64,000 bases of DNA from a virus (Duplodnaviria; Caudoviricetes), in IMG/VR virus record IMGVR_UViG_3300020037_001957, positions 1-64,000 of that record; one strand, 5' to 3'. Shown here one piece after another: positions 56,770 to 57,412 of the stretch (position 1 is its first letter; every line of letters starts with the position of its first letter). Below the pieces are notes generated by a model. The model had not been told where the DNA came from. It searched no databases and saw only the letters and a list, made by a program, of their open reading frames with translations. Made by a program: the position numbers and the translations under genes.

Positions 56770-56907
56770 AGATAACGTTTTGCAGCTACCAGAAGGGCGG
56801 GATTTTAACAACAAAATAAACTTAGAAAGATGAACAATAATTTAACCACAAATGCTTCTAACGAAGCCGAAAGACCCGCCTTTTTGGTAGGTGCTGTTAT
56901 AGGTAGT
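56770..56907 (+). repeat. attC-like hairpin A
   Basis: ATAAC-GTTTT-GCAGCTACCAGAAGGGCGGG ... CCCGCCTTTTTGGTAGGTGC-T-GTTAT long imperfect inverted repeat; the loop contains ATG 56830. Confidence 0.75.
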
Positions 56908-57090
56908 ATTTTTAGGTGGGGTTTCAGAATTATAAACTGGAATCACTTTAGGATAAAAGCACATAATGGCAAACCAAGAATAAAGCGGATAATTAAATTG
57001 AAAGGATTTAGAACGGCTTTGATTGAAGAATATAATGGTAACAGATGTACTTCTCGTTTTTACTGGCGGGTCGGCAAATATTACCTATAA
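56830..57090 (+). CDS. Cassette 1 protein (leader from hairpin A fused to the cassette body)
   Basis: Codon 23 (GTT) lies at the putative crossover 56896; the TAA stop lies inside the TAAC of hairpin B. Confidence 0.6.
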   Translation: MNNNLTTNASNEAERPAFLVGAVIGSIFRWGFRIINWNHFRIKAHNGKPRIKRIIKLKGFRTALIEEYNGNRCTSRFYWRVGKYYL

Positions 57091-57235
57091 CGGTTTGCGG
57101 CTAAACTCTCGTTATTTTTAAACACTAAAAACTAAATAATATGGCAGGAATTAATTTTACAGATGAACGTGAATATGCACCTAAACTCAAATTTAAAAAT
57201 AATGGAGTTTTAGCTGCTGTTATAAGTTCGGTTTG
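57080..57235 (+). repeat. attC-like hairpin B
   Basis: ATAAC-GGTTT-GCGGCTAAACTCTCGTTATTTTTAAA ... TTTAAAAATAATGGAGTTTTAGCTGC-T-GTTAT; the loop contains ATG 57141. Confidence 0.75.
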
Positions 57236-57329
57236 CGATTGTGAACCACACACTTTTTATGAATGGGAAAAGGATGAGAATAAATGTAGTCAATGTGGTA
57301 AACCGATATACGAGCAAACTGACTTATAA
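57141..57329 (+). CDS. Cassette 2 protein, small Zn-ribbon-like (CxC...CxxC)
   Basis: Codon 27 (GTT) lies at crossover 57219; CDC and CSQC; the TAA stop lies inside the TAAC of hairpin C. Confidence 0.6.
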   Translation: MAGINFTDEREYAPKLKFKNNGVLAAVISSVCDCEPHTFYEWEKDENKCSQCGKPIYEQTDL

Positions 57330-57412
57330 CTACTCGATATGCGTAATTTTTTGTAATTTAATTTATTGATAATCAATATTTAATTTTACAAGGCATAATT
57401 TAGTCGTTAGTA
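57315..57412 (+). repeat. attC-like hairpin C (more degenerate)
   Basis: TAAC..ACT..TATGC..TGTAA pairs with TTACA..GCATA..AGT..GTTA (GTTAG at 57406-57410). Confidence 0.55.

Follow-up and report, generated by a model that had tools for sequence, protein, structure and literature searches.

A probable two-cassette array of an integron-like gene-capture system in Bacteroidota and their phages

The complementarity between the two ends of a cassette is the historical basis on which integron cassettes, and their crossover point, were defined. The system described here is similar to sedentary chromosomal integrons, especially those with an 'inverted integrase' layout, in several respects. Single-gene cassettes lie between imperfect palindromes with AAC and GTT ends; each cassette begins with a sequence complementary to the inverse core at its far end, and stop codons overlap the site; one strand of the site folds preferentially and, in bacteria, lies opposite the genes; and a tyrosine recombinase gene stands at one end of the array, in the direction of the cassettes. 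Unlike in chromosomal integrons, however, the recombinase is Xer-like, does without the IntI-specific insert and, in Pedobacter, carries a long N-terminal extension. The sites differ as well, since their outer boxes pair over at least 12 bp, their spacer is 5:1, a G.G mismatch is conserved and their length ranges from 49 to about 260 nt. Finally, phage arrays have inverted polarity, and a start codon lies within their sites.

Two phage systems are also relevant. In CTX-type filamentous phages, a folded single-stranded attP is used by the host XerCD recombinases to integrate the whole phage at dif. The present sites may be analogous, in that a Xer-type recombinase would go together with a one-strand hairpin that has an unpaired central region; here, however, many small cassettes stand in arrays and there is a dedicated recombinase gene. 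T4-type phages carry mobile regulatory cassettes composed of promoters and stem-loops, which are thought to act through homologous recombination. As in those phages, repeated stem-loops between small early genes mark the boundaries of modules in the present system, but the covariation of the flanks, the strand bias held in common with bacterial arrays and the linked recombinase set it apart.

Integrase-less clusters of cassette sites (CALINs) have been described in phage genomes by Qi et al. (2023), who found canonical attC sites by means of IntegronFinder or HattCI and showed that they are recombined by IntI1 (PMC9892861). As at the locus studied here, those clusters have no integrase and sit in virulent phages, one of which infects a Flavobacteriaceae host; the difference is that the present hairpin family goes with another recombinase. 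We found no convincing member of that family in Polaribacter phage P12002L, which harbours a published CALIN. IntegronFinder 2.0 detected almost no integrons in Bacteroidetes (PMC9024848). A classification of tyrosine recombinases reports that the IntI insert is not fully conserved in an 'integron-like' subgroup, and describes no arrays of the present kind (PMC8138268). Our literature search found no paper describing a Xer-linked cassette system of Bacteroidota and their phages.

In this paper we analyse a 64,000-nt stretch of DNA from a Flavobacterium-type phage, which we call the window, and we argue that its positions 56773–57330 are likely to be a two-cassette array of such a system, in which genes are captured in an integron-like manner.

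Two hairpins and a terminal site upstream of the DnaB gene

The 64-kb window is the first part of a complete 77.6-kb viral contig with terminal repeats. The array sits in a run of small plus-strand genes, just upstream of the gene for DnaB helicase (58071–59468; assigned by phrog_19, E 9e-57). Its left flank is a conserved phage gene of 123 aa (56383–56754, plus strand), with homologs of 55–60% identity in the loci L123, L124 and L125, and its right flank is a conserved gene of 116 aa (57719–58069, plus strand), which is followed directly by the DnaB gene. Searches with the 116-aa gene and DnaB yielded one close relative only, the remaining DnaB matches being at most 33% identical. The DnaB gene is closely followed by one for tRNA-Leu (anticodon tag; window 59646–59740). 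In the small-ORF region further upstream there is a 46-nt direct repeat, 80% identical, whose copies (window 53633–53678 and 53821–53866) are 188 nt apart and unrelated to the hairpin family discussed below.

The members of this family consist of two conserved cores, TAACGKTTTGCRGCTA and TAGSTGCTGTTA, around a variable stem. Hairpin A (56773–56899, plus strand), which belongs to the 126-nt class, and hairpin B (57088–57222, plus strand; 135 nt) match both cores with no mismatches. They have the same anatomy: a TAAC opening, a 5-nt bulge (GTTTT or GGTTT) that faces a single T, an inner stem of GCRGCTA against TAGSTGC, and a GTTA closing. For example, hairpin A reads TAAC, the 5-nt spacer GTTTT and the GCAGCTA stem, then TAGGTGC, T and GTTA. 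The original prediction, made by a model from the sequence alone, had proposed these hairpins and their 5-versus-1 internal loop, and both are real: on the plus strand the hairpins fold far better than shuffled sequences, with RNA z-scores of -5.0 (A) and -3.3 (B) and DNA z-scores of -3.2 and -2.0, against DNA values of about -1.2 on the minus strand. A generic scan of the window for TAAC...GTTA hairpins singled out A and B, all others remaining at the level of shuffles, and the phage holds no family site besides these two. The same prediction likened the stems to the Flavo-1 repeats, and here it failed: the Rfam covariance models gave no relevant match, to Flavo-1 or otherwise, whether at the gathering threshold (the window plus six array loci) or at E<=10 (56600–57600).

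Each hairpin opens a small gene. The loop of hairpin A holds an A-rich leader and the ATG of ORF1 (56830–57090, plus strand), a protein of 86 aa with no assigned function and about 20 homologs at 67–95% identity; the loop of hairpin B holds the ATG of ORF2 (57141–57329, plus strand), a zinc-ribbon-like protein of 62 aa with a CxC...CxxC motif. As had been predicted, both genes stop in the TAA of the TAAC that follows them, ORF1 in that of site B (57090) and ORF2 in that of the next site (57329). Neither Pfam nor PHROGs offers a family for ORF1, for ORF2 or for a 77-aa ORF downstream.

The predicted complementarities of the cassette ends are present too, the start of each cassette being complementary to the inverse core at its own end. 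In cassette 1, the GTTA and 3′ flank at the start of the body (56896–56911, plus strand) form an inverted repeat with the 5′ flank and TAAC of site B (57076–57091, plus strand), 16 nt long and 94% complementary. In cassette 2, 57219–57235 pairs with 57315–57330.

Site C (57327–57409, plus strand) had been counted as a third tandem attC-like hairpin, alongside A and B. It does run from TAAC to GTTA, opening with TAACTACTCG and continuing into an AT-rich palindrome, and it does fold (DNA z-score -3.3), but it is an atypical terminal site rather than a hairpin of the family; because the conserved inner box of the family is absent, we class it apart from A and B. Its 5′ flank pairs with the 3′ flank of hairpin B, such that the flanks form a chain from A to B to C, and the 5′ flank of hairpin A, at the start of the array, has no partner. 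The TAACTACTCG opening also ends the arrays in L005, L069, L083 and L337. Terminal sites adjacent to the recombinase in bacteria have the consensus TAACT, 5 nt, ATA, 2 nt, CG, which site C fits in part, and against a profile of such recombinase-proximal sites it ranks 6th among 696 TAAC sites, a rank that is suggestive only. (The top match to the profile, at 36080, sits inside a minus-strand ORF and is probably due to chance.) Site C may be an array-terminal, attI-like site or a decayed attC.

Several features near this end of the array are worth recording. The long AT-rich palindrome inside site C is centred on TTGATAATCAA (window 57344–57388); it falls in the 140 nt of non-coding DNA that precede the 77-aa ORF, and might be an operator or a promoter region. 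The 77-aa ORF itself, together with a further TAAC at 57708–57711 (57471–57711 in all, plus strand), is possibly a decayed third unit. We considered a third cassette at 57330–57710 and rejected it, its flank pairing being 4/8 and not significant. In L337 (2253–2540), a family hairpin of 260 nt has a complete 64-aa ORF in its loop. Only ~21 nt separate its GTTA from the next TAAC, which makes for an almost empty 'cassette', and the TAACTACTCG terminal motif comes next.

Gain, loss and transfer of the window's cassettes at TAAC

To see how the cassettes behave in nature, we compared the contigs that carry the exact ORF1 protein (L364–L372). Samples in which the phage or its cassettes are present include runs SRR14751608, SRR14751609 and SRR14751620, assembly ERZ28612983 and JGI 3300020036, 3300020049 and 3300005664. 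The arrangement in L364–L366 is the same as in the window. In L367, L368 and L369, which come from three sequencing runs, window 56773–57093 recurs with 100% identity within unrelated flanks: the identical block starts with the TAAC of A and ends with the TAACGG of B, and then a different hairpin and a 114-aa ORF follow. L371 and L372 place the hairpin and body of cassette 1, 90% identical, in a third context. In L370, 486 of 487 positions (99.8%) are identical to window 56605–57091, after which the contig continues with window 57331–57351; cassette 2, with its 239 nt, is cleanly missing, and the junction lies in TAAC.

Counts of hairpin-neighbour linkage across loci yielded few informative pairs, and it was these contigs that settled the linkage. 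The matches in L367–L370 place the unit boundaries at TAA^C to TAA^C, with the hairpin at the 5′ end of its gene. Cassette 1 is therefore the 315-nt block of hairpin A and the ORF1 body (56776–57090, plus strand) that is seen in unrelated flanks, and cassette 2 is the 239-nt block of hairpin B and the ORF2 body (57091–57329, plus strand) that is precisely absent from L370. Since the crossover is at TAA^C, which is the 5′ end of each hairpin in the orientation of the window, a hairpin belongs to the gene behind it. This differs from the original prediction, in which crossover at G^TT gave units of 323 bp (56897–57219) and 187 bp (57220–57406); those units are shifted by one hairpin relative to the natural ones of 315 and 239 bp. 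Once the inverted polarity is allowed for, the TAA^C boundaries would equal the classical bottom-strand AA^C cut. Cassettes 1 and 2 have thus both moved as units with junctions in the AAC/GTT core, and the window gives unusually direct natural evidence for the mobility of cassettes.

Relatives with the same flanks and other cassette content, which the prediction had proposed to look for, do exist. Besides L370, which has lost cassette 2, they include L125, where the 116-aa gene directly abuts the 123-aa gene and the whole stretch 56755–57718 is missing, so that there are no cassettes between the two. L123 and L124 have a different cassette from that of the window between the same two genes, and their sequences part ways from each other right after the next TAACG.

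The bodies of the cassettes have also been found behind other hairpins. A homolog of the cassette 2 body, with the same end motifs, follows a different hairpin in L341. The ORF1 body (56888–57098) recurs in L337, L341 and L343 at 93–94% identity and in L339 at 78%. The copies in L337, L339 and L341 stand behind other hairpins of ~126 nt, which provide different N-termini, and no recognised hairpin precedes the copy in L343. Other pairs of loci break at the 3′ core. The same body behind different hairpins, taken together with these 3′-core breakpoints, indicates that exchange occurs on the GTTA side as well, which could reflect either recombination acting on the other strand or homologous recombination between conserved cores. 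As for the loss of cassette 2, it lies between the 9-nt near-repeats ACCTATAAC and ACTTATAAC, and therefore it could have come about through slippage.

Two of these contigs show further rearrangements. In L343 (2001–2324), the homolog of the ORF1 body, from which the upstream hairpin has been lost, is fused in frame to the next cassette body, giving a chimeric ORF of 107 aa that passes through the 3′ arm of the next hairpin and reads ...WLGAVM... there. In L371 (2540–2570), the copy of cassette 1 has lost the GTTA end of hairpin A while its ORF is still open; its 3′ arm is TTTGGTAGGTAGTATT, compared with TTTGGTAGGTGCTGTTATAGGTAGTATT in the window, the difference being a short deletion between GGTAG repeats.

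A family of sites that fold on one strand

The hairpin family extends well beyond the window. A search with the 16-nt 5′ core detected at least 119 viral loci, in most of which the 3′ core follows at a distance of 49, 58–73, 89–92 or 124–128 nt. A tolerant site finder identified 172 sites in 98 phage loci, that is, in 97 of the viral loci from the core search and in the window. Phage arrays have 2–5 sites, always on one strand per locus, and each of the 172 sites has the palindrome ends of an integron site, TAAC and GTTA being invariant. Cultured Flavobacterium phages are among the carriers. On the bacterial side, a gapped pattern of 28 positions, for which the chance expectation is near zero, matched at least 120 contigs, spanning Flavobacteriales, Chitinophagales, Sphingobacteriales, Cytophagales, Bacteroidales, Saprospiraceae and Ignavibacteria. 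The G.G mismatch occurs in 117 of 162 sites; the spacer, judged by eye, is 5:1, compared with roughly 5/5-6 in canonical attC sites, which are built from R and L boxes and have extrahelical bases. Since only 5 of 151 sampled Flavobacteriaceae genomes contain the exact phage-type 16-mer, the TAAC/GCAGCTA type must be one subfamily.

We compared the 8 nt after the GTTA of site n with the 8 nt before the TAAC of site n+1, and counted Watson-Crick pairs. In phages, the mean is 4.81 of 8 for the next site (n=74 pairs), as opposed to 2.69 of 8 for the two flanks of the same site (n=169 sites) and 2.61 of 8 for random pairings (n=19,746 random pairs). In bacteria, the corresponding means are 5.13 of 8 for the next site (n=47 pairs) and 2.74 of 8 for the own site (n=162 sites). 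Nearly all phage pairs less than 650 nt apart score 6–7. The complementarity of cassette ends in the window is thus not an accident, as the 74 adjacent pairs from other phages attest. The flank sequences vary from cassette to cassette, and yet they covary between neighbours. A 3′ flank that pairs with the 5′ flank of the following site, and not with the 5′ flank of its own, is the classic signature of integron cassettes.

The two strands of a site do not fold equally well. The TAACG strand folds better in 131 of the 162 phage sites and in 149 of the 161 bacterial sites (DNA parameters). The opposite strand has 191 A.C mismatches, compared with 33 on the folding strand; a mismatch of this type corresponds to a G.T wobble when the other strand folds. 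The position of the genes is another matter: in 87 of 98 phage loci, and in the window, they share the folding strand, whereas 105 of 119 bacterial loci have them on the opposite one. The bacterial arrays of the family thus agree with the bottom-strand rule of attC sites, their putative recombinogenic strand being opposite the cassette ORFs, whereas the window and those 87 phage loci do not. Relative to bacterial arrays, the polarity in phages is inverted, such that the hairpin heads its gene and often gives it its start codon. In the ~126-nt class, 58 of 83 phage sites have an ATG within the hairpin that opens an ORF continuing for 25 codons or more beyond the site, compared with 8 of 132 bacterial sites; the 3′ core is read as Gly-Ala-Val in 51 of those 58 phage sites. 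Both sites in the window carry an in-hairpin ATG.

These patterns bear upon one alternative in particular, according to which the hairpins are RNA-level or regulatory modules of phage early genes, similar to the T4-type promoter/stem-loop cassettes, and the genes are shuffled only by homologous recombination at the 16-nt and 12-nt cores and not by a dedicated recombinase. Such modules would explain why the folding strand is the sense strand in phages and why the loop exposes a leader and an ATG; they would also accommodate the breakpoints on both sides of the hairpins, and a phage that encodes no recombinase. In bacteria, however, the same strand folds best even though it is antisense to the genes. 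Because the fold is selected on the antisense strand there, a role in mRNA cannot explain the family; the sites act as DNA, not as mRNA. Moreover, the flanks of neighbours covary without being conserved in sequence, which homologous recombination does not yield; the junctions coincide exactly with TAAC; a tyrosine recombinase gene adjoins the arrays in a constant layout, as described below; and neither promoter nor terminator signals are enriched at the hairpins. We conclude that regulatory modules are an unlikely account of the array.

A Xer-like recombinase beside the arrays

The complete 77.6-kb phage contains no PF00589 match anywhere, and hence any tyrosine recombinase activity at the array must be supplied in trans. 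The original prediction had indeed looked to a host or distant tyrosine recombinase, and although the phage has none, Xer-like homologs lie beside bacterial arrays and in some phages. In Pedobacter glucosidilyticus, for example, five sites separate co-oriented genes of 155–561 aa, and the array abuts a tyrosine recombinase gene that points in the same direction (L249:868–2310; PF00589, E 3e-42). The best NCBIfam models for this protein are XerA, at 208 bits (cut-off 220), and the integron integrase TIGR02249, at 191 bits (cut-off 265). The alignment to TIGR02249 is in two pieces that skip model positions 181–240, where the protein has only about 17 residues. Its nearest solved structures are those of XerA (4a8e, 5hxy), followed by IntI4 (2a3v) and XerD. 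In neither the phage nor the bacterial arrays does an integrase with the IntI insert stand beside the sites.

The same adjacency of array and recombinase occurs in Flavobacterium lutivivi and in a Lacibacter MAG. Overall, homologs of 40–62% identity are present in 18 of 119 bacterial 8-kb loci, and 17 of these 18 have one layout, with the gene beyond the last site and on the strand opposite the folding strand. Among phage loci, a homolog follows the array in L018, L077, L080, L087 and L339, the last of which contains a homolog of ORF1 within its array and encodes a 266-aa version of the enzyme. Homologs are also encoded by 91 of the 151 sampled Flavobacteriaceae genomes (E<=1e-55); many of these genes sit at the end of a contig, as would happen if assemblies broke at repeat arrays. 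Beside the Flavobacteriaceae recombinase we find arrays of at least 12 cassettes with variant YAAC...GTTR cores and an unbroken chain of flank pairing. The enzyme is linked to the sites by adjacency only.

Two further observations concern this recombinase. In the Flavobacteriaceae chromosomes L356–L363, long arrays of ~124-nt and ~188-nt hairpins with YAAC...GTTR cores adjoin its gene. The chromosome of Ca. Parvibacillus calidus (G003) has many copies of a recombinase fragment of ~224 aa, each with an in-frame TAG (e.g. C1:975644–976273); some of these copies adjoin a family site, which might mean an IS-like spread of a unit of recombinase plus site.

The nature of the enzyme also bears on whether the array could be a canonical CALIN, that is, a set of ordinary attC sites served by a classical IntI of the host. 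The original prediction of a CALIN-type integron array holds insofar as the cassettes are mobile, the sites are folded and attC-like and the phage has no recombinase; it does not hold as regards a canonical integron, because of the Xer-like enzyme and the polarity. The logic is certainly shared, from the AAC/GTT ends and the complementarity of cassette ends to the stop codons in the R box, and IntI1 has been reported to recognise attC sites carried by phages (PMC9892861). Nevertheless, the adjacent recombinase falls short of the integron-integrase cut-off (191 versus 265 bits), has no insert region and finds its closest structures in XerA; the 5:1 spacer geometry and the inverted phage polarity do not fit either; IntegronFinder surveys show almost no integrons in Bacteroidetes (PMC9024848); and the published Polaribacter phage CALIN has no member of the hairpin family. 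A canonical CALIN is thus highly improbable. Small elements of the transposon or MITE type, with terminal inverted repeats and a transposase to move them, are barely credible: every unit does have inverted ends, but these vary from unit to unit and covary where a transposase would call for conserved ones; target-site duplications are absent; and the neighbouring enzyme is a tyrosine recombinase.

The integron-like array that we favour would work as follows. A cassette consists of an attC-like site and one small gene, the site being an imperfect palindrome that folds as single-stranded DNA on the TAACG... strand. The site is made up of an outer box (TAAC/GTTA together with at least 8 variable flank bases), a 5:1 spacer, which is asymmetric, an inner box of GCRGCTA/TAGSTGC, in which a G.G mismatch is usual, and a stem-loop that varies. 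The Xer-like recombinase, if it is the enzyme that pairs with these sites, would cut the folded strand, presumably exactly at TAA^C. Cassettes would be excised as circles, their two flanks completing the outer stem, and be reinserted at another TAAC site. In phages such as this one, the recombinase would probably be supplied in trans by the host or by a co-infecting phage. Since the folding strand of phages is the sense strand, the hairpin of the ~126-nt class would there supply a leader, an ATG and about 20 codons to its gene.

A broader reading has, in our judgement, about an even chance of being correct. It holds that a single pool of cassettes, common to Bacteroidota and their phages, is moved by a recombinase derived from Xer, as an integron analogue that escapes standard integron finders; that phages have reversed the system, such that the hairpin doubles as a portable translation-start module; and that, while infecting or co-infecting a cell, even lytic phages without a recombinase, such as this one, swap in trans small early genes, possibly with anti-defence roles.

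Integrons are viewed as a device of bacteria, and one that Bacteroidetes almost entirely lack. The present system follows the integron logic with a simpler, Xer-like recombinase, and its sites are found in many unrelated phages. If confirmed, the system would be a second, independent example of folded single-strand sites and their recombinases evolving from Xer. It would also provide a mechanism for the mosaic small-gene regions of these phages and a route for gene exchange between phage and host, and the two early genes of the phage studied here would be recently mobile accessory cargo.
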